Source: a virus
Taxonomy: Duplodnaviria; Caudoviricetes
IMG/VR virus record: IMGVR_UViG_3300033475_000112
Span: 1 to 32,415 of that record
Length of the DNA stretch: 32,415 nt
Direction: 5' to 3' (one strand)
The translations under genes were made by a program, and so were the position numbers. Positions 18,896 to 29,440 of this stretch are shown piece after piece; positions within the stretch are counted from its first letter, which is position 1; each line of letters opens with the position of its first letter. The notes beneath the pieces are model-generated. The model was not told the origin of the DNA and made no database searches. It saw nothing but the letters and a program-made list of their open reading frames with translations.

Positions 18896-19360
18896 TTATG
18901 CCGCCGGGATGACCTCGAAGATCTTCGATCCGGAGGGCGAATTGTCCGTCGGATATTCGAGCCACTTCTGCCATTCGGCCCACATCGCGTTATAGAGTTC
19001 GCGATTGGTTTTTCTCAGCTCAGGCCTGGGCTTCCACACTTCCTTGCCGCAACGGGTGCAGCTGATGCACATATCGCCGTTCGGGTAAGTGTTCTGATTG
19101 ATCGAGTAGTTGGCGTCCGAACCTTTGGCGAAATTGTTGTTACGGCCGCCCTTGCGGTGCTTGCAGATGGACTGCCGGCGTAGGCGTTCGCTCTCGCTCT
19201 TTTTGAAGTCCAGCGCCTGGCGCTCGCGATCGCGGGTGAGACGTTCTTTCTTCTCCTGCCGTTCACCCATCTCCTCGCGCATACGATCGATCTGCATGCG
19301 CTTGTATTCGAGCTCGATCGCCTCGAGCTCACTCAATTCAACTGTCTTCTTCGGTGCCAT
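18896..19360 (-). CDS. Hypothetical coiled-coil/Zn-binding protein
   Basis: AGGAG SD before the ATG at 19360 (MAPKK); charged helix followed by CKH...CxxCxxC. Confidence 0.7.
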   Translation of the reverse strand: MAPKKTVELSELEAIELEYKRMQIDRMREEMGERQEKKERLTRDRERQALDFKKSESERLRRQSICKHRKGGRNNNFAKGSDANYSINQNTYPNGDMCISCTRCGKEVWKPRPELRKTNRELYNAMWAEWQKWLEYPTDNSPSGSKIFEVIPAA

Positions 19361-19437: not shown

Positions 19438-20610
19438 TTAGCTGATGAGTGTGGGAGCGTCGATGTAGCGCACACGCCCGACCGTGTCCGGAACCACTCC
19501 AACCGCGAAGTTGAAGTTGTAGGCCGTCGATCCGCCGATCATCATGGCCGGGTCGGAAACGCTGGCATCGTCGTAGCGCTTGGTGATGACCTTCAGATTC
19601 CGCCAGTCACCATCGCCCAGCTCAGTCATTTCCTTGGCGCCCATCGAAATGGTGATCACGCCATCCTTGCCGTAGATGTAGGTACGGAAAGCGGTCACGC
19701 CGGCATGGCCCAGGTAATTCAGGGTCTGGGTCACAATCGTGGTTTCGTAGAAACGCACGCCTGCCCATTCCAGGGCTTCTACATACTCACCCTCGCCGCC
19801 TGGCAGCTCCTTCAAGAGATCCACGCCCTCCATGTGCCGCTTCAGGACATCGGTGAAGGAATTGTTGGCCGCGTCGTTCAACGCATCGCCCCAGCAGAAT
19901 GGGGTGATCAGGCCGCAGAACTTTCCTTCTTCCATCGGCTTCACATTGCGCCCGCGCAGCGAGGCCACGGCCGAAGTGATGTTGTTTTTGTTGAAGGGCA
20001 CGTTGAAAGCGTTCTGCACGCTCACGCTGGCGTCGATCACATTCAACCCATCCGTGGTGTTCTTGATGAGATAGGCCACGGTCTGCGCGCACTGGTAGGC
20101 CAGCTCCTTGCCGCCGTTTTCAAGAGCGGGGTCGATGGCCAATTGCATGCTAAAGCGCGAATAGTTGAGGTAATCGGCGTAATTGCCGATGACAATCTTG
20201 TCCGTGAGGATGTTGATCGTCTCGCCGCTGGTGACGGTGCCTTCGGCGGCCTGGGCCAGATCCGGACCGAAGCTCACATATTCGAACAGGTTGAGCGTGT
20301 TGCCGGAATTCTCAGGCAGAGGCCTGCGCTCCACGCATCGATAGTGAGGCGTTTCGGCCTTCAGGTTTTCCACGAAATTCTTGTCGTAGTAATTGACCTG
20401 GGTCTGGGTGAGATTCGAGGTTTGGTTCGAGGCTGGCGAGTAGCCGGCGCCGAGCTGCGTCTGCTGGGCCAGGGCGCTGCCTTGTTCGTGGATCAAGAAG
20501 GCGATGGCTGATCCCCACATCGCCAACACATAGAGCACCGGCCGCAGAACCTTCTCTACGATCCAGTTTCTCCGCTGAAGGAATGTCTCATCCTTGCGAA
20601 TCGAAATCAT
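19438..20610 (-). CDS. Major capsid protein (N4-gp56-like, HK97 fold) with hydrophobic N-terminal leader
   Basis: LPENSGNTLNLFEY, EGTV.SG, YADYLNYS, WAGVRFYETT and TYIYGKDG motifs; size; position after the scaffold; GGGAG SD. Confidence 0.85.
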   Translation of the reverse strand: MISIRKDETFLQRRNWIVEKVLRPVLYVLAMWGSAIAFLIHEQGSALAQQTQLGAGYSPASNQTSNLTQTQVNYYDKNFVENLKAETPHYRCVERRPLPENSGNTLNLFEYVSFGPDLAQAAEGTVTSGETINILTDKIVIGNYADYLNYSRFSMQLAIDPALENGGKELAYQCAQTVAYLIKNTTDGLNVIDASVSVQNAFNVPFNKNNITSAVASLRGRNVKPMEEGKFCGLITPFCWGDALNDAANNSFTDVLKRHMEGVDLLKELPGGEGEYVEALEWAGVRFYETTIVTQTLNYLGHAGVTAFRTYIYGKDGVITISMGAKEMTELGDGDWRNLKVITKRYDDASVSDPAMMIGGSTAYNFNFAVGVVPDTVGRVRYIDAPTLIS

Positions 20611-20653
20611 GATGCCGCTCCCGACTTCGCGGGGCGGTCAGTCTTGCCTGGAT

Positions 20654-21541
20654 TTAGCTAGCCCGTCTTTTCGGTTTATTGTCTTGCTGAGCGTAAAACT
20701 CTGAACACCGCACAAACTCCGGGTCGGTGGTCATCAACCGTTTCATCGTAGGCGCGCTCATCTTGGCAATCTGCTCCCGCGAATATTTCATGCGATTGGT
20801 AGGCTTCGCCGGCGGCTGTCCGCTGAATTGACTGGGACGGACGCTGGTCGAAATCCGGGTGGGAGTCTTCGGTGGCGCGGGCGCGGGAGCATTCCGCTCG
20901 GGCTGCGGTTCCGGAGGCTGCGTTTCGGTTTCATCCTCTTCTTCGGGCTTTGGTTGCAGCAATTGGGCTGCGGTCAGCTCTTCAAAGGCCTGCTTGTAGT
21001 GAGCGAGATTGGTGGGATTCATGCCCTGGGTACGCATGTACCGGACCAGAGTGTTTTTGTTGTGCTCGGAGGGAAACCATTCTGGCGTCTCCTCCGCGAA
21101 CTGGGTGGCTGCTGCGATCGCCGCGCGGCTGATGCGTTCCTCGCGGTCCGCCGGCGCGTTTTCGGTCGCCTGGCGTAAATTCTCCATCGGTCCAACCTGG
21201 GACTCGATGATTCTGGTAACGGCCCTGTCGACGGTGGCCGGATCATTCAGCTCGGCCACCGCTGTCATGCGATCGGCCGCGGTCAGAGGCTTGGGGGCGC
21301 CAGGCCTGGGAGCAGGGGGGGTGTTGCCAGGCCCGGCGCCGTTGCCTCCGTTGTTACGCCTGAGTTCGGCGATGCGCCGGTTGGCGTTCGCCTGAGAATC
21401 GGCCAGGGCTTCGGCAATCTGATCCTTGGTGCCACGGAATACGGAAATGGGTACGCCGTCCGTCGGATCGTCCGAGGTGACGGTGAGCTTCCATTGCGGT
21501 ACGCCGTTTTTCGGCGCCAACTCTTCCCATTGCTTCGGCAT
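20654..21541 (-). CDS. Capsid scaffolding protein, putative
   Basis: Directly upstream of the capsid gene; helical with Pro/acidic linkers and a short C-terminal helical motif (YSREQIAKMS...DPEF); GAGGA SD. Confidence 0.65.
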   Translation of the reverse strand: MPKQWEELAPKNGVPQWKLTVTSDDPTDGVPISVFRGTKDQIAEALADSQANANRRIAELRRNNGGNGAGPGNTPPAPRPGAPKPLTAADRMTAVAELNDPATVDRAVTRIIESQVGPMENLRQATENAPADREERISRAAIAAATQFAEETPEWFPSEHNKNTLVRYMRTQGMNPTNLAHYKQAFEELTAAQLLQPKPEEEDETETQPPEPQPERNAPAPAPPKTPTRISTSVRPSQFSGQPPAKPTNRMKYSREQIAKMSAPTMKRLMTTDPEFVRCSEFYAQQDNKPKRRAS

Positions 21542-21544
21542 GGC

Positions 21545-21901
21545 CTATTCCTCTGGCAATGATCCTATTCCCTGAATCACGTCATCCAAACTAGCTTCCT
21601 GTGGAAGCTGCTCATCATCACCAGTCCTGGTGCTGTAAGCATTAAACACTTGTTTTTGTACGTACGTGAAGAATAACCAAGCTGCCTTGGCCATGCAATG
21701 GCCTCCGAGCACGGCTTCGGGGTCGCCGGCCGAGGTATTGAAATGTGCCGTTTCGAGCTCGATGCAGGCCCGCTCCATCACATCCAGAAGCGCTTGATAA
21801 CGCTCATCCTGGTAGAGCTGAGCGATCATGCCCTGGGCTTCCGGTGAGACTACAACTTCCGTAACTTTGAGCGTGCGCGTGGTGCGGATCTTCAGTTCCA
21901 C
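21545..21901 (-). CDS. Small helical head-module protein (118 aa)
   Basis: C-terminal part of the 201-aa track ORF; GTG at 21901 with GAGG SD. Podoviruses often have a small gene between portal and scaffold. Confidence 0.6.
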   Translation of the reverse strand: MELKIRTTRTLKVTEVVVSPEAQGMIAQLYQDERYQALLDVMERACIELETAHFNTSAGDPEAVLGGHCMAKAAWLFFTYVQKQVFNAYSTRTGDDEQLPQEASLDDVIQGIGSLPEE

Positions 21902-22188
21902 GTATGCCTCATCCGCGCCCGCTGGCGGTTGATGTAGTCGATGCCCTTTTTCGCGCGCATCAGCATGATGAAGTTGTTTGGCTCTTTCTGAAGGAAATCG
22001 GAAAGGGTTTCGCGCGATGCTCTCTCTAAGGCGAGCGCGGGCGTGAATTGCAGGATGGTTCCGCAATTCAGGCAGACCGTCAGGTCGCCGGGATCCGGAC
22101 CGCCAGCGTTCCCTGTCACCTTGGTGGCGGCGTCCAGCTCGTGACGGCATTGCGGACAGGATGTGAGGTTATGCCGGTACGTTTCCAT
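21892..22188 (-). CDS. Zn-ribbon protein
   Basis: CPQC...CLNC pair; overlaps both neighbours by a few codons. Confidence 0.65.
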   Translation of the reverse strand: METYRHNLTSCPQCRHELDAATKVTGNAGGPDPGDLTVCLNCGTILQFTPALALERASRETLSDFLQKEPNNFIMLMRAKKGIDYINRQRARMRHTWN

Positions 22189-22858: not shown

Positions 22859-25003
22859 TCAACCTCCCTCCGGCGCGAATACACTTTGCTCGATCGCAGT
22901 CCGGTCCCATTTGCGTTCATCCCAGAGCGCGGCTTCGTCTGAAGCTTTGCCCAGCATTTCCTTGGCCAGGTCCGCTTCCTTCGATTGATCGATCTCCGCG
23001 GCCTTGGCGTTGTGGCGCGCCCCGATCGCGGCGAGCTGGCCCTGCACACGCTGCACGCCTGGATTGTTCTGCTGGTACTTCTGTGACTCTTGCGGGGTCA
23101 TCGGCCGGATGAGTTCGCGCGCATCCTTCCATTCGCTGACTTCCATGAACATCTCGAGGAGCAGCTTGACGTCGACCATGTAGCCCATGGCGTTGAGCTG
23201 CTGCACCAGTGGCGCATTCTCGAAAATCTGCACCATGAGCGGAAGCGCCTGGGCCATGGCTTTCTTGGCTGCCAGCTTCGCGCCGGCCAGGCAATCGAAC
23301 ATATCCTCGGACTCATAGAAGTTCTGCGCGTCGAGTTCAAACGCATCGCCCAGCTCGCGGCCCAGGATCTCGCGAATCTTGGCCGGCGTCATACGATCCT
23401 TCACCAGGAAATCGATGAGCTCGATAAGGGGCAGAAGTATCCCTTTGACAAAGTGGCCTACAGGTCCCTGGATCTTGCCCGCGTTCGCTGCGATGATGCC
23501 GCCGGCGCCGGTCGCGGTCCTCGCCGCCGAGCTACCGCCCTTGCCAGGCAGGCTGCCCTGGGTGAATGCTTCATCCGCGCCCGTGGTCGATTGCGCATTC
23601 TGCGCCGCGGCCTGCAGGACGGTGAAGACTTCGGGCGGCGTTTTCGGCATTTCGATAATGCCGAATGCATCGCGCACGCTCTGGCCGGCCTTGGTATCCA
23701 CGTCGACGATGCCGCCCAGCCTCATGCGGATTTGCTGGGTGGGCGCGTTGGCGCCGCGATCGCGCGCGTACATCGGATTGATAGCGAAGCTCAAAAGGTC
23801 TAAAACGGCGTCCACTAAACCTTTTTCGATGCGCTGGTCGCTTCCGGCCAGGCGGCCCACGCCTATGCCGTACCCCGCCTTGGGAATGTTCCAGAAATTT
23901 GCGGAGAAGTAAGGAATGCAGGGCAGGTTGTGTTCCTGGCTGCGAATCAGCAGGCCGGTGATTCCGTCCGTGGTGAGAATCGTGTGGATGTAGCTGCGAT
24001 CATGCCGCTCGGCCATCATGATGGGTGCTTCGAGAGGATCGGCTGAGCTGACTTCCTCTTCGTTCTGCGCGTGGTGGATGGCGTAGTTCTGGCCGCCCAG
24101 GTTCTGCATCACCTGGCTGGGATTCGCGGCGTTCTGATCGCGGTGGGCGAAGAAAAAGGCCTTCAGCTCCTCTTCGCTCGGTATGTCATAGCCGCCGATC
24201 TGTTTGCCGTCCTCATCGAATTCCTTTTCCTCGCGCAGGTCATCGAGATCCTTGAAAGTCGGATAGCTGATGTGGATGACATACTTGGCTGACTTGTGCA
24301 GCGCGTTCGGTTTCTTCCAGGTTGGATCCACGAGCACGGATCCGAGATCGCAGCGCTCGAAGAAAATGCCTTCCTTCGTGACTTCAGTGTCGGTCACCAC
24401 GCGCTCATCGGATTCTTTGGTGTGAATGGTGAGCTTGCCGCCGAAGGGAAGTGTTTGCGTGATGGGCGCCTGCTTGGGGCTGCGCACCTTTTTCACTTTC
24501 GTTTCGCGTGTCCAGCCGGCTTTGACGATGACGGTGCCAAAGTTCGTCATGTCCTCAAGCGCCAGCTCTGCCTCGGCCTCGAAATCCGCATCGTCAAGCA
24601 GTGTCCCGTAGAGCGTAGTTTTCGCGCGCGCGGTGGTTTGGGAAGTCGCAGGCCTCGGCCTCAGCAGGAAAGGCGGATTCTCGTAAAAGATGCCGCTCTT
24701 CATCGCCGGTACCAGCGAGTTCACATGCTTGGCGACGGTGAAGCGGGAGATATTGGCGCGGGCAACCGTGGATCCTTCGAAGGACTGGTTGGTGCGCGGC
24801 GACTGGTAAAGTACATCGGCTTCGCGCCAGTGTAGGTTCCACTGCTTTTGATCGAGGTAGGTTTTCGCGCGCTGCAGGTCCTGGATCACCAGCGCCACGG
24901 CCGCATCATCGGTGTACTTCGGATCCAAGCCAGGGCCTTGCAGCTCGACATCGGATCGCTCGATGATCGCCTGCCCATTCACTGCTCCCGCCAATGTCGC
25001 CAT
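22859..25003 (-). CDS. Portal protein
   Basis: 714 aa between terL and scaffold; YGIGVG, ARTATGA and Gln-rich C-terminal barrel typical of podovirus portals; GGGAG SD. Confidence 0.88.
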   Translation of the reverse strand: MATLAGAVNGQAIIERSDVELQGPGLDPKYTDDAAVALVIQDLQRAKTYLDQKQWNLHWREADVLYQSPRTNQSFEGSTVARANISRFTVAKHVNSLVPAMKSGIFYENPPFLLRPRPATSQTTARAKTTLYGTLLDDADFEAEAELALEDMTNFGTVIVKAGWTRETKVKKVRSPKQAPITQTLPFGGKLTIHTKESDERVVTDTEVTKEGIFFERCDLGSVLVDPTWKKPNALHKSAKYVIHISYPTFKDLDDLREEKEFDEDGKQIGGYDIPSEEELKAFFFAHRDQNAANPSQVMQNLGGQNYAIHHAQNEEEVSSADPLEAPIMMAERHDRSYIHTILTTDGITGLLIRSQEHNLPCIPYFSANFWNIPKAGYGIGVGRLAGSDQRIEKGLVDAVLDLLSFAINPMYARDRGANAPTQQIRMRLGGIVDVDTKAGQSVRDAFGIIEMPKTPPEVFTVLQAAAQNAQSTTGADEAFTQGSLPGKGGSSAARTATGAGGIIAANAGKIQGPVGHFVKGILLPLIELIDFLVKDRMTPAKIREILGRELGDAFELDAQNFYESEDMFDCLAGAKLAAKKAMAQALPLMVQIFENAPLVQQLNAMGYMVDVKLLLEMFMEVSEWKDARELIRPMTPQESQKYQQNNPGVQRVQGQLAAIGARHNAKAAEIDQSKEADLAKEMLGKASDEAALWDERKWDRTAIEQSVFAPEGG

Positions 25004-25945: not shown

Positions 25946-26433
25946 TATTCAAACCTCCGGAGGATCACCTTTGCCAAACTCAGGGCCTGTTCTTTCGTCA
26001 ATTGCACACATCCCTCCGGATACTGCGTAACTTCGAACTGCTTGATTTCCCCGGCCGGTGTGAGAATAACTTTTGAGGAAGAAACACTGATTGGCTCGTC
26101 GGCGCGCTCCGGCTGCCCAAGTAATGTGTATCCATCCTCGAAAGCTTTCGCCGGCGAAAAAGAAGTGTAGTGGTCTTCGTAAATGACCAGGTATCCACCA
26201 GGCTCGGGCTTGAACCGTTGTACCCATGCATCTGACATATAAACAAGCCAGTGCAGGTCCTCCCACTGAAGATGAACCCGGTTTGATCTCATTTCTGCCG
26301 GATCGCTGACACATGCGGGCCGGTGTGTGATTTCGACAATCTTGGCTGCGCCAACGACCTTATGGCATTTCCACGCCGGTAGTTCGGGTAGCTCGCCATT
26401 TATCGCGTCTATGAGGCGTTCTTCACTATTCAT
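25945..26433 (-). CDS. Conserved phage protein (CHKVV.A.KI...GGY.V.YED.Y.SFSP...FE.GY family)
   Basis: Motif visible in the translation; ATGA overlap with the terL stop. Confidence 0.7.
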   Translation of the reverse strand: MNSEERLIDAINGELPELPAWKCHKVVGAAKIVEITHRPACVSDPAEMRSNRVHLQWEDLHWLVYMSDAWVQRFKPEPGGYLVIYEDHYTSFSPAKAFEDGYTLLGQPERADEPISVSSSKVILTPAGEIKQFEVTQYPEGCVQLTKEQALSLAKVILRRFE

Positions 26434-28088
26434 CCGCTCAACCCCGGCATGGCATCGCTCAATTCATCGTGCTTCGGCGGCTGCCACTCTTCTTCCACAA
26501 CTTCAATGACCGGCTCCCGTTCGGCATATTGACCGCGGCCGTAAACCCGGTTATAGGCGTCCTGGTCCAGCTGCGCCTGCCAGGCATCATCATCGGTCAT
26601 TTCGAAGCCATCGGCGGCGATCGATGCCGGCAGGCAGGCCGCCACGCGACTCACAACCGATGCAATCTCTTGGTCCTCGACCATCCCGAAATGATAGAGC
26701 TGCCGAAAAACCTCCTGGGCGTTCTGGATCCCGTCAGAGAAAAGCAGTCGGCCGGCAATCAGGTGAGGTTCCGCGCTCTTGATGGCTAGGGCGCGCGCGG
26801 TCGAATCCTGCAGATACTCCATCCACTGGATCTCGATGCGCCAGGCATCCTCGAGAGCCTGGTTGCGGATGTGCTGCTCCATCGATCGCGCACCAGGTGT
26901 TTCCTCGATCTGGATCCGGTGTGTCTCCCATTTGCGGGCCAGGCTGATCACGCACCGCGAAAGGGCGGTGGGGGTGAATGTGTCGCGCACCACTTCCATG
27001 ATGGTCATGCGGCCGGCCTTCTCGGCGCCCACGGCCGCGGCGGCATATTTGCACTCGGCATACTCGAAGCGCCATGCGATATGGATCTTGCCGTTGTCCG
27101 GCGTATCGTCGTCGCAGATTTTTGCAGCCTCGAGGCGTTCCATGGGGAAGGTGGGTTTGAAATTGCCTTCGGCGATGTTCATGTATTGCGTCCAGAACGA
27201 GTTTTCATCCAGGTTCTTCTCACTTCTCAGGAAGTTCCAGGACAATTGTTCCGGAAATTGCAAAATCACATCATTTTCGGTCAATTGATCGTCTTCGAGC
27301 TTCAGAGCATGCGGCTTGCGGATGTAGGCAGGCCTCCAGAGCAGGACCCAGCTGTCATCCATCTTCTGAATCATGTCGCCATAGAGGTCCATTGGCCCAT
27401 AGCGCGTACCTGTGAGGTCGAGGAAGCCATGCTCGCCCATCATCTTCAGGTTGATGTAGAAGTTGGTGCGCACTTTGCGCAGGCCGAAAGGCGTCTGCGA
27501 GTTGCGGTTGTCCTGCACATCCTCCGATTTGAGAATGTCCGGATGCCAGCCGCTGAGTGATTGCTCAATAGACACGCCTTTGACGGTGGGGTCGCGGCGG
27601 TATTTGGTCCTCGCCGGCGTGGTGAACTCGCCCGCCTTGGGCATTTTCAGCAGCACGTGTTCTGGAAAGAGCTGGTGGAGGATCTTCTGTGGTGTTCCTT
27701 CGGGGCAATAGAAGTGGCTGGCGACTTCGGCCACGAATGCATCGGCCAGGGGCGAGTCCGGCGAGTTTGAAGCCGTCATCACCATCACCGCGATCTCCGG
27801 GAAACAGAGGATCCACTGCACGGTGTCCGCGATGTTGAAGCTGGTTTTGTAGGTTTTGCGCGGAAGGAGAATCATCCGCTTGTGCTTGCGATGTTGATCC
27901 TCGATCGGCTTCGATGGATCTTTCTTGATGAAGACGTCGGCAACTTCGCGGTGCCAGCGATCACTCACCTTGTCATAGCCGAGCACATATTTGGTGAGCC
28001 AGAACAGATCTGTTTGCGCGCGGTGGCGAAGCTCATCGCGATAAGCGGAATCCTCGCCGATGCGTGCAACGTCTATCGCGTTTGTCAT
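26430..28088 (-). CDS. terL: Terminase large subunit
   Basis: Walker A variant LLPRKTYKTS, Walker B region GWHPDILKSEDVQD, coupling motif TGTRY...DLY, QYMN linker; upstream of the portal. Confidence 0.88.
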   Translation of the reverse strand: MTNAIDVARIGEDSAYRDELRHRAQTDLFWLTKYVLGYDKVSDRWHREVADVFIKKDPSKPIEDQHRKHKRMILLPRKTYKTSFNIADTVQWILCFPEIAVMVMTASNSPDSPLADAFVAEVASHFYCPEGTPQKILHQLFPEHVLLKMPKAGEFTTPARTKYRRDPTVKGVSIEQSLSGWHPDILKSEDVQDNRNSQTPFGLRKVRTNFYINLKMMGEHGFLDLTGTRYGPMDLYGDMIQKMDDSWVLLWRPAYIRKPHALKLEDDQLTENDVILQFPEQLSWNFLRSEKNLDENSFWTQYMNIAEGNFKPTFPMERLEAAKICDDDTPDNGKIHIAWRFEYAECKYAAAAVGAEKAGRMTIMEVVRDTFTPTALSRCVISLARKWETHRIQIEETPGARSMEQHIRNQALEDAWRIEIQWMEYLQDSTARALAIKSAEPHLIAGRLLFSDGIQNAQEVFRQLYHFGMVEDQEIASVVSRVAACLPASIAADGFEMTDDDAWQAQLDQDAYNRVYGRGQYAEREPVIEVVEEEWQPPKHDELSDAMPGLSG

Positions 28089-28420: not shown

Positions 28421-28744
28421 CTACATCATCCCCGCTGCGCCGCCGCCCTGTTCTGGTGGCGCCGGAGCTGCCTCTTGTGATTCCATCTCGCCGGCTGCCG
28501 GCTGATCGCCCATATGCTCTTGCATGTGCTCCTGGGCTGCCTCCACATCGGGGAGCACGTGTTCCTCCATGTGGTGCGGCGCGTGATCGCTGCCAGGTGT
28601 TCCGGTGTGGCGGTGGACGTGTGCGATGACTCCTCCGTTGCCGGCGCGCTCGTAGTGCACGCCATGCGTATGCAGTTTTGGCCCCTCGCGTTTGCCTTCT
28701 TTCTTGCCGCCCAGGGCCTTTTTGATCTCGTGTTCCTTCGCCAT
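28421..28744 (-). CDS. His-rich small protein
   Basis: GAGGAG SD; basic N-terminus, many His residues, acidic tail. Confidence 0.7.
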   Translation of the reverse strand: MAKEHEIKKALGGKKEGKREGPKLHTHGVHYERAGNGGVIAHVHRHTGTPGSDHAPHHMEEHVLPDVEAAQEHMQEHMGDQPAAGEMESQEAAPAPPEQGGGAAGMM

Positions 28745-28855: not shown

Positions 28856-29440
28856 TTAGAATCCGATCTCGAAGTTCTCGAGGTTGCCGATGTTGAGATC
28901 CGCGGTGCCAAAGGTGAGGCCCACGGCAAAGTAGAACGCGGGATCGGTGGGCTGCACAGGAGTGACGCCGGCCGCGCCCTGGTTCTGCACAACGTTGCTG
29001 CCGTTGATGCCGGCCAGCTTGTTGGCCAGCGCTGCGCTCGCATCGTAGAGGTTGTTCACCAGCTGGTTGAATACCCCATGCAGGATCCCGCTCTGCGAAT
29101 CGAACTGGAGGATGGCTTCAATCCACCAGGGAGCATACGTGGTGGCCGCGATCGCGCGCGCCGTGCCCGATCCGAGCAACGTCCAGTTGGCCGCGGTAAA
29201 GGGAACCGCGGGAACCACCAGGGCTGCATAGAGCGAGGCTTTCAGCGTATAGGCGCCGGCGACGTAGGCGTTGCCTTCGGCCCGCACTCTGAATTGCTTT
29301 CTTTCAATGGCCAGCTTGCCAGGCGCGGCCAGTGCGGTGGGGAGGGCTGCGTTGGCGAGCTGCGCAAAAATCTGCGAGTTGCCGGTGTTGGCGATGACGG
29401 GGGCGGAGGGTGGGGTGCGACGAATCGCAATGCTGCTCAT
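28856..29440 (-). CDS. Beta-rich hypothetical protein, possible virion protein
   Basis: AGGAG SD; Ala/Gly/Asn-rich with beta-strand patterning; first gene after a ~96-bp intergenic gap. Confidence 0.7.
   Translation of the reverse strand: MSSIAIRRTPPSAPVIANTGNSQIFAQLANAALPTALAAPGKLAIERKQFRVRAEGNAYVAGAYTLKASLYAALVVPAVPFTAANWTLLGSGTARAIAATTYAPWWIEAILQFDSQSGILHGVFNQLVNNLYDASAALANKLAGINGSNVVQNQGAAGVTPVQPTDPAFYFAVGLTFGTADLNIGNLENFEIGF

Follow-up and report, generated by a model that had tools for sequence, protein, structure and literature searches.

A translated, optional leader of membrane-type chemistry precedes the HK97-fold major capsid protein in a group of tailed phages

The stretch of viral DNA analysed here (hereafter the window) is 32,415 nucleotides long. 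It carries a head gene block in the podovirus-type order: large terminase, portal, a small conserved gene, a gene in the scaffold position, coat, and then adaptor and tail genes. The major capsid protein gene is a 390-codon frame (19438-20610, minus strand) with M1 at 20610. The following parts of the block are referred to below.

26430..28088, minus strand: large terminase (PHROG 38, E 7e-27)
22859..25003, minus strand: portal protein (PF23899, PHROG 1216)
21545..22150, minus strand: conserved small gene between portal and scaffold, conserved over about its last 115 residues; no family
20654..21541, minus strand: probable scaffolding protein, assigned from its location and its composition; no family match
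19438..20448, minus strand: mature major capsid protein, HK97 fold, N4-gp56-like (PHROG 1357, TIGR04387, Foldseek)

Several other genes were noted around the block and in the 10 genomes compared. Directly after the coat gene, a coiled-coil protein with CxH and CxxC motifs (18896-19360, minus strand) was found in 9 of the 10 genomes and had no convincing family. Upstream of the terminase lies an Ala/Thr-rich protein of about 190 residues (28856-29440, minus strand; 10 of 10 genomes, no family, no leader), which is possibly, as a guess, a cement or decoration protein, and beside the terminase lies a His-rich protein of 107 residues (28421-28744, minus strand; 5 of 10 genomes). The front of the cement-like frame is swapped for a strongly hydrophobic stretch in L099 (7752-8345, genome G006) and in L018; this stretch, which we take to resemble a transporter permease, suggests chimeric assembly or recombination. 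A clamp-loader-like AAA+ gene (PHROG 168; L087, 20-682, genome G001) was located at one physical end of six records (G001, G002, G003, G008, G009 and G010), and an SbcC/SMC-like ATPase (PHROG 1499) occurred in 7 of the 10 genomes. A gene of about 230-290 residues without a family (L087, 17005-17883, genome G001) was present in 9 of the 10, where it sits between ejection-type genes and a cell-wall-hydrolase-like gene.

The coat protein matched PHROG 1357 from residue 60 (E 1.4e-11) and TIGR04387 from residue 64 (47.1 bits, E 1.9e-12). It is N4-gp56-like, but its score lies below the curated TIGR04387 cut-off of 60 bits, which a relative without the leader described below (P0120) passes with 61.9 bits. 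The AlphaFold model (mean pLDDT 76) was matched by Foldseek to the capsids of Pan3, GP4, A4 and N4 with E values of 1e-12 to 3e-11, and the Foldseek probability was 1.00 for Pan3, GP4, A4, Moo19 and N4. The protein therefore has the HK97 fold. Since the alignment of the N4 coat begins at its own residue 13, at profile position 57 (E 0.18), N4 is without such an extension. In three outgroup loci (L186, L187 and L345), the coat matches span 1,261 and 1,581 nt, more than the protein needs, and an insertion within the coat gene is possible there.

A preliminary description of this locus had read the first 48 residues of the coat protein as a membrane-type leader. The translation and the codon positions bear out the basic residues that it listed (R5, K6, R13, R14, K20 and R23), the uncharged core V25-I40 (codons 20538-20491) and A46-L47-A48 at 20475-20467, followed by Q49. 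The acidic residues D7, E8 and E19, missing from its list, are also present. The GGGAG at 20622-20618 does precede the ATG at 20610, and the internal Met31 has no ribosome-binding motif, as had been said. The features of the leader are the following.

20618..20622, minus strand: GGGAG ribosome-binding motif, 7 nt 5' of the leader ATG
20449..20610, minus strand: 54-residue leader M1-G54 of the major capsid protein, from homolog comparison and selection
20542..20583, minus strand: basic amphipathic helix, residues 10-23 (F10, R13, R14, W16), from hydrophobic moment and conservation
20491..20541, minus strand: P24 kink and 16-residue apolar core V25-I40 with G33-S34, from conservation
20467..20475, minus strand: A46-L47-A48, signal-peptidase-like candidate site of a rival model, from the preliminary description and type A conservation
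20446..20454, minus strand: junction L53-G54/A55, predicted mature N-terminus and likely cut site, from leaderless starts and the junction motif

Homologs gave 122 distinct leaders of at least 40 residues, which were sorted into five types (A, 73; B, 15; C, 8; D, 19; E, 7); one earlier tally filed two type B leaders as type A, hence the denominators of 75 for A and 13 for B. A ribosome-binding motif was scored at the leader ATG in 42 of 45 distinct leader loci, the other three having weaker purine runs, and GGGAGC was invariant in all 19 aligned type A loci. An in-frame ATG, GTG or TTG with such a motif was found in none of the 45 loci within -8 to +3 codons around the junction. A downstream start of translation, for which the preliminary description had allowed, is thus refuted, no locus of the 45 having a motif-bearing alternative.

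The leader is under purifying selection. Its dN/dS was 0.32 in type A (19 loci) and 0.39 in type D (14 loci), as compared with 0.06 and 0.16 for the mature part; these values, calculated pairwise from the last 46 leader codons and the first 130 mature codons, are near saturation and therefore rough. Synonymous identity was 0.47 in type A against an expected 0.47, and 0.67 against 0.49 in type D, among closer relatives. The consensus RNA structure over the leader was weak (-2.9 kcal/mol), with no covariation support. Separately, the spacer between scaffold and coat (20611-20653, minus strand, in the window) often has a C-rich run in type A loci. This run could pair with the ribosome-binding motif as a possible translational hairpin, which was absent from the repeat finder output for the window and from the consensus fold.

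Alignment with homologs showed that the leader recurs, and moved its boundary. The sequence of leaderless homologs sets in at the counterpart of A55, and the natural boundary is therefore G54/A55 and not A48/Q49; the leader is real, but it ends at G54 (20449), six residues past the 20467 given previously. Among the 120 of 240 homologs listed, most bear the leader, and 16 anchored homologs begin one or two residues before G-Y-S-P; among these 16, P0078 probably reflects a wrongly called start. Leaderless relatives start with Met-[APS]-G-[YF]-S-P, and the DNA of true leaderless genes shows an upstream stop, then the same ribosome-binding motif directly 5' of this Met. Upstream DNA is shared between the leader-bearing loci L043 and L109 and their leaderless counterparts L044 and L110. 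L109 and L110 have the intergenic DNA and the scaffold tail in common, and in L044 and L110 the ATG is fused straight to the A55 codon.

The residues before the junction follow a motif. Position -2 is hydrophobic in 121 of the 122 distinct leaders (Leu or Phe in 98; background 0.20), and position -1 is Gly, Asn, Ala, Cys or Ser in 117 and Met in none. Left out of this first set were L065 (contig edge), L070 (internal start pick) and L086 (Met at the junction), which scored 11-22 residues, and also five database proteins with internal starts. A held-out set of 86 loci, 8 of which were skipped as fragments and 78 scored, contained 26 new leaders with Leu or Phe at -2 in 25 and Gly, Cys, Asn or Ala at -1 in all 26, together with 20 distinct leaderless starts. 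None of the 78 loci had 3-37 extra residues; the presence of the leader was all-or-nothing. The junction motif is common to unlike leaders, though leaderless proteins manage without it. Further leader types were seen in L115, L116, L199, L200 and L329 (36-49% coat identity), some of them resembling classical signal peptides and all ending in Leu or Phe plus a small residue or Asn.

The leaders are 44-86 residues long, and their sequences differ widely between types. The hydrophobic moment was 1.42 for residues 10-23 versus 0.85 for the core. In type A, F10 is conserved in 70 of 72 leaders, W16 in 68 of 73 and R14 in 62 of 73, with a basic residue at position 13 in 57 and at position 14 in 67 of the 73. 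P24 is present in all 73, Y27 in 70, G33 in 66 and S34 in 69, and residues 25-40 contain one charged residue in 1,168 cells. Lys or Arg follows at position 41 in 56 of 73, where the window itself has His; the median net charge is +3. Near-invariant are W16, P24, Y27, G33, S34 and E43, and the invariance of W16, Y27, S34 and E43 suggests protein contacts besides lipid. A helical stripe of small residues was considered and is unsupported, the periodicity peak being at 160 degrees and not 100.

The 19-residue Kyte-Doolittle maximum reached at least 1.6 in 112 of the 122 leaders, as compared with 1.10 in the mature protein. Type D is less hydrophobic (14 of 19 reach 1.6), and 18 of its 19 leaders have a Glu within the core; of the held-out leaders, which are mostly type D, 18 of 26 reach this value. 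A segment that is apolar on all faces in 73 type A variants would be expected of a helix buried in lipid, but not of a soluble scaffold helix. AlphaFold modelled the leader as a single straight helix (residues 8-49; block pLDDT 78-90 for residues 11-50). A type C leader was modelled as a hairpin, but the model is poor (mean pLDDT 49). Residues 53-68 are predicted to be disordered, and the N-arm (49-76) is uncharged. Prediction of a complex of the leader with the mature coat gave a score of 0.00, which carries no weight either way.

To place leader presence on a phylogeny, a quick tree was built from 160 mature sequences (125 with leader and 35 without), leaving out duplicates, fragments below 280 residues, L065, L070, L086 and the five internal-start database proteins; a second profile search had added only 5 proteins. 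Leader presence takes 12 changes on this tree, at least 6 of them forced by starred branches, and 7 when only DNA-verified leaderless rows are counted. On a 68-row subset, a single clade was rejected for the 25 ingroup leaderless rows (p-AU 5e-50) and for the 10 leaderless rows inside type A (p-AU 2e-67), these groups having been defined by leader state after the trees had been seen. The longest contigs of the sister group are 90-99 kb; none of 80 loci from this group, out of 253 matched, showed an in-frame Met at least 35 codons upstream, and the cultured member of the group, the phage Tunturi_3, is leaderless as well. A single gain followed by several exact losses is apparently the simplest reading; the change counts give no direction, and several independent gains could also have occurred.

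The leader-bearing phages have genomes of about 40 kb. Their hosts are probably Acidobacteria, judging from genome bins and from the phage Tunturi_3: 5 of 5 genome matches were Acidobacteriota bins, possibly mis-binned, and the closest cultured relative is the major head protein of Tunturi_3 (PP885686; 42% identity over the mature part), described as a podovirus of the Acidobacteriota host Tunturiibacter in PMC11924767. Tunturi_3 is unlike the leader phages in having a 97.6-kb genome and a leaderless coat, with a stop 3 codons upstream of its Met-G-Y-T-P start. A close pair with the same first gene, G002 (leader) and G003 (leaderless), has 38,706 and 39,113 bases, which we took as complete, though a classifier calls both linear and about 40% complete.

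The other head genes were compared between the two classes. The N-terminus was hydrophobic in none of the homologs of the portal (0/79), of the small upstream gene (0/65) and of the gene downstream of the coat (0/74). One of 81 scaffold homologs passed the N-terminal hydrophobicity mark, a Val/Pro-rich outgroup sequence, as did one homolog of the cement-like gene, which is explained otherwise; 43 of 60 leader-bearing coats passed the same mark. The scaffold-position gene was present in 24 of 24 loci and the small portal-scaffold gene in 10 of 10 genomes, with leader or without. No gene was shared by all 5 leader genomes while missing from the 5 leaderless ones, two of the latter being partial and the gene caller crude, and no gene cluster in the head block tracked the leader among the 24 loci. 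A leader-linked phage gene (protease or holin substitute) was accordingly dropped as a candidate, none being seen in the 5 versus 5 genomes. In both classes, genes for small proteins predicted to be membrane proteins lie close to those of the tail.

A leader profile, built from types A and D plus one E, found 7 matches in 1.84 billion proteins: six were these capsids or fragments of them and one was a weak, unrelated repeat protein. A protein atlas search with residues 1-70 gave no usable match. In the literature searched, which covered few subscription journals, no description of a membrane-type leader on a tailed-phage coat was found. The leader is real, conserved and optional and apparently undescribed, and would appear to be a removable coat leader with membrane-type chemistry.

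We infer membrane insertion and cleavage of the leader, and regard a leader that engages the membrane and is cut by the host as probable when the anchor and the aborted-export readings set out below are taken together. As a single explanation we tentatively prefer a dispensable inner-membrane anchor, with the coat domain cytoplasmic and the junction cut by a host protease before shell closure. The gene encodes the coat in precursor form only, and the apolar leader of 54 residues would insert into the inner membrane of the host from the cytoplasm. The leader may form a monotopic or re-entrant anchor, composed of an interfacial amphipathic helix and a Pro-kinked apolar helix flanked by basic residues at 12-14 and at 41, and the coat domain would therefore stay cytoplasmic. 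A cytoplasm-facing host protease reading [LF]-[GNACS] would cut at or next to G54/A55, and the product would be the coat protein as leaderless relatives translate it. The benefit would be modulatory, subunits being concentrated or held back at the membrane, and the leader would thus be dispensable.

In this scheme cutting would come before shell closure. If the N-arm lies inside the shell, as in procapsids of phage 80alpha (PMC5744158), a membrane protease must act before closure, and the tethered species would therefore be subunits or early intermediates. The membrane-tethered procapsid of the preliminary description would fit this geometry poorly: a finished procapsid tethered through its coat is unlikely, and subunits before assembly are more plausible.

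The anchor agrees with the single start, the selected leader, the all-round apolar core, the exact boundary, the repeated clean loss, the separate scaffold and the leaderless portal and scaffold. The default reading of such a segment by Sec as N-in, C-out, the lower hydrophobicity of type D, the suggested protein contacts of the near-invariant residues, the position of P24 at the start of the apolar core and not in its middle as in PglC, the lack of Ser-Pro, the core Glu of type D, the straight AlphaFold helix and the A-x-A enrichment in types A and E count against it. As to the enzyme, no protease family (Pfam, PHROGs) was found among the core genes scanned, several of which have no family and might include a phage protease that has diverged beyond the reach of these two collections. 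The host protease Prp (PF04327) was found in 0 of 81 genomes of Acidobacteriota, the phylum of G005 and the presumed host (control, 3 of 14). Prp was rejected as the cutting enzyme on this result, and also on the leader being neither short and L27-like nor present on the scaffold. A Tat signal was rejected on conservation: RR at 13-14 occurs in only 44 of 73 type A leaders, and the first 30 residues contain RR in none of 15 type B, 2 of 8 type C, 1 of 19 type D and 2 of 7 type E leaders. With no recognised protease, no Prp, an uneven A-x-A and an unconserved Tat motif, a cytoplasm-facing anchor cut at the junction is preferred.

The leader could instead be an inefficient Sec signal, a reading that we consider unlikely but that is the main rival of the anchor. 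Signal peptidase I, which acts on the periplasmic face and at sites following the (-3,-1) rule, would cut A-x-A as the unfolded N-arm (49-76) threads the channel; the coat would then slip back to the cytoplasm, its short stub being kept or trimmed at the junction. Sec reads a basic n-region and 16 apolar residues by default as N-in, C-out, and type A leaders have both the basic n-region and the uncharged h-region in an n/h/c layout, with small residues at -1 and -3 of the A-x-A position in 65 of 75. Strict A-x-A in the last 14 residues is enriched in type A (53 of 73 versus 30.3 in shuffles) and type E (6 of 7 versus 1.9), where it lies at -9 from the mature start; in type D a valid site lies exactly at the junction (19 of 19), and the predicted disorder of residues 53-68 would suit threading. 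However, loose sites are no commoner than in shuffles in any type (type A, 73 versus 70.6), and the A-x-A excess is not independent evidence because the sequences are related. The distance of the site from the mature start also varies from type to type, and the only feature that all types have in common is located at G54/A55. At the A-x-x-Q position of type B, residue -1 is small in no more than 7 of 15, type D has its core Glu, and the type A junction has Arg or Gln at -3 in 66 of 75. A second cut would be needed to account for the junction motif. Cleavage on the periplasmic face is also hard to reconcile with a capsid in which neither portal nor scaffold has a leader, and near-complete aborted export is not known to us from any bacterium. 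For hepatitis B precore, PMC2114996 reports that 70-80% of the signal-cleaved capsid precursor returns to the cytoplasm. What stands of the earlier reading is a translated, membrane-type and probably removable leader; its signal peptidase site stays a candidate.

A soluble propeptide is rather improbable. The helix would pack on other leaders, the coat body or a chaperone and be cut in the cytoplasm with no lipid involved, delaying assembly or hiding the coat from host sensors. The near-invariant residues from W16 to E43 and the polar residue in the type D core would suit such packing, and propeptides are common on coat proteins (PMC3185693), but the 16 type A core residues offer no solvent-facing charged stripe, and the leader replaces no scaffold, a scaffold being present in both classes.

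We likewise find it improbable that the leader stays uncut on the mature N-arm, bundled inside the virion or displayed outside. The scanned genes yielded no recognisable protease, 80alpha can do with its leader uncleaved (PMC5744158), and virions of DEV, an N4-like phage, retain residues 1-46 as an N-terminal arm (PMC11445570). Nevertheless, partial deletions were never seen in the scored loci, and the junction motif persists across leaders that vary twofold in length and sequence. Apolar helices in their hundreds on each virion would also require a partner, whereas no gene in the genomes compared accompanies the leader.

True export of the coat by Sec or Tat, or a shell built round a lipid vesicle held by the leaders, is very unlikely, because a trait lost by one deletion cannot set the assembly compartment. 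R13-R14-x-W-I of the window does resemble a twin-arginine motif, and a basic residue follows the core in most type A leaders, but RR is unconserved (5 of 49 in types B-E), portal and scaffold are leaderless, and loss of the leader needs no other gene change. An inner membrane of 4-5 nm would cut the volume to 0.54-0.62 (assumed radius 27 nm), and the genomes of the pair G002 and G003, if complete, are nonetheless of 38,706 and 39,113 bases. Lastly, although a few database entries begin within the leader (P0004, P0064, P0071, P0072 and P0078), an annotation artefact or RNA element with translation beginning near A55 is scarcely credible and was rejected on the start scan (0 of 45 loci; Met at -1 in 0 of 122 leaders), the leader dN/dS of 0.3-0.4, the expected synonymous identity of type A and the consensus fold of only -2.9 kcal/mol.

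The preferred cytoplasm-facing anchor has partial parallels among known systems. In 80alpha, host Prp cuts the capsid and scaffold leaders, and the leader is dispensable for viability (PMC5744158). The present system is like 80alpha in that an HK97-fold coat is extended at its N-terminus, the scaffold is a separate protein, a large hydrophobic residue lies close to the boundary, a host protease is proposed and the leader is dispensable. In 80alpha, however, 13-14 residues shared with the scaffold and L27 are removed, whereas here 44-86 apolar residues stand on the coat only. The HK97 delta domain and the T4 cleavage likewise involve a helical N-terminal pro-region removed before or during maturation, as would be the case here, but by a phage protease (PMC3185693, PMC6893505); here no protease is recognised among the genes scanned, and the leader is optional. 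The delta domain is essential and replaces the scaffold, whereas here the scaffold is separate (24 of 24 loci) and the leader has been lost repeatedly.

Membrane-bound prohead assembly is described for T4 only, via the portal, in a 2011 review (PMC3185693); there a membrane protein binding the portal is the anchor, whereas here every coat subunit would carry a candidate anchor. Filamentous phage procoat (PMC3185693) and hepatitis B precore (PMC2114996) are capsid proteins from which a host peptidase removes a hydrophobic leader at the N-terminus, as proposed here; precore can be dispensed with, and part of it goes back to the cytoplasm. Neither, however, is HK97-fold or terminase-filled; f1 coat remains a membrane protein, and precore comes from only a fraction of transcripts, whereas no leaderless start exists here. 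In PglC, a basic dyad and a proline enforce a re-entrant topology (PMC6133551). The leader partly resembles PglC, its N-terminal apolar stretch following a basic pair in most type A leaders and being accompanied by a conserved proline; PglC offers a physical model of how both ends could be cytoplasmic. PglC has Ser-Pro in mid-helix and keeps its anchor, whereas here Pro precedes the core and follows Gln or Arg; no homology is claimed.

Coat annotations in this group need care because gene callers clip the leader in some records. It is possible, if somewhat doubtful, that a widespread tailed-phage group makes a membrane-anchored HK97-fold coat precursor freed by an undescribed [LF]-[GNACS] host protease. 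If so, head assembly would be membrane-staged, and hundreds of apolar peptides would be left in the inner membrane for the coat of each virion. Tailed-phage coats are usually treated as soluble, and a membrane-type coat leader would add a second membrane route. It would also point to an undescribed processing activity in Acidobacteria, a phylum that is abundant in soil but from which few phages have been cultured. Sister phages with and without the leader, having the same head genes, provide a natural control for leader function.
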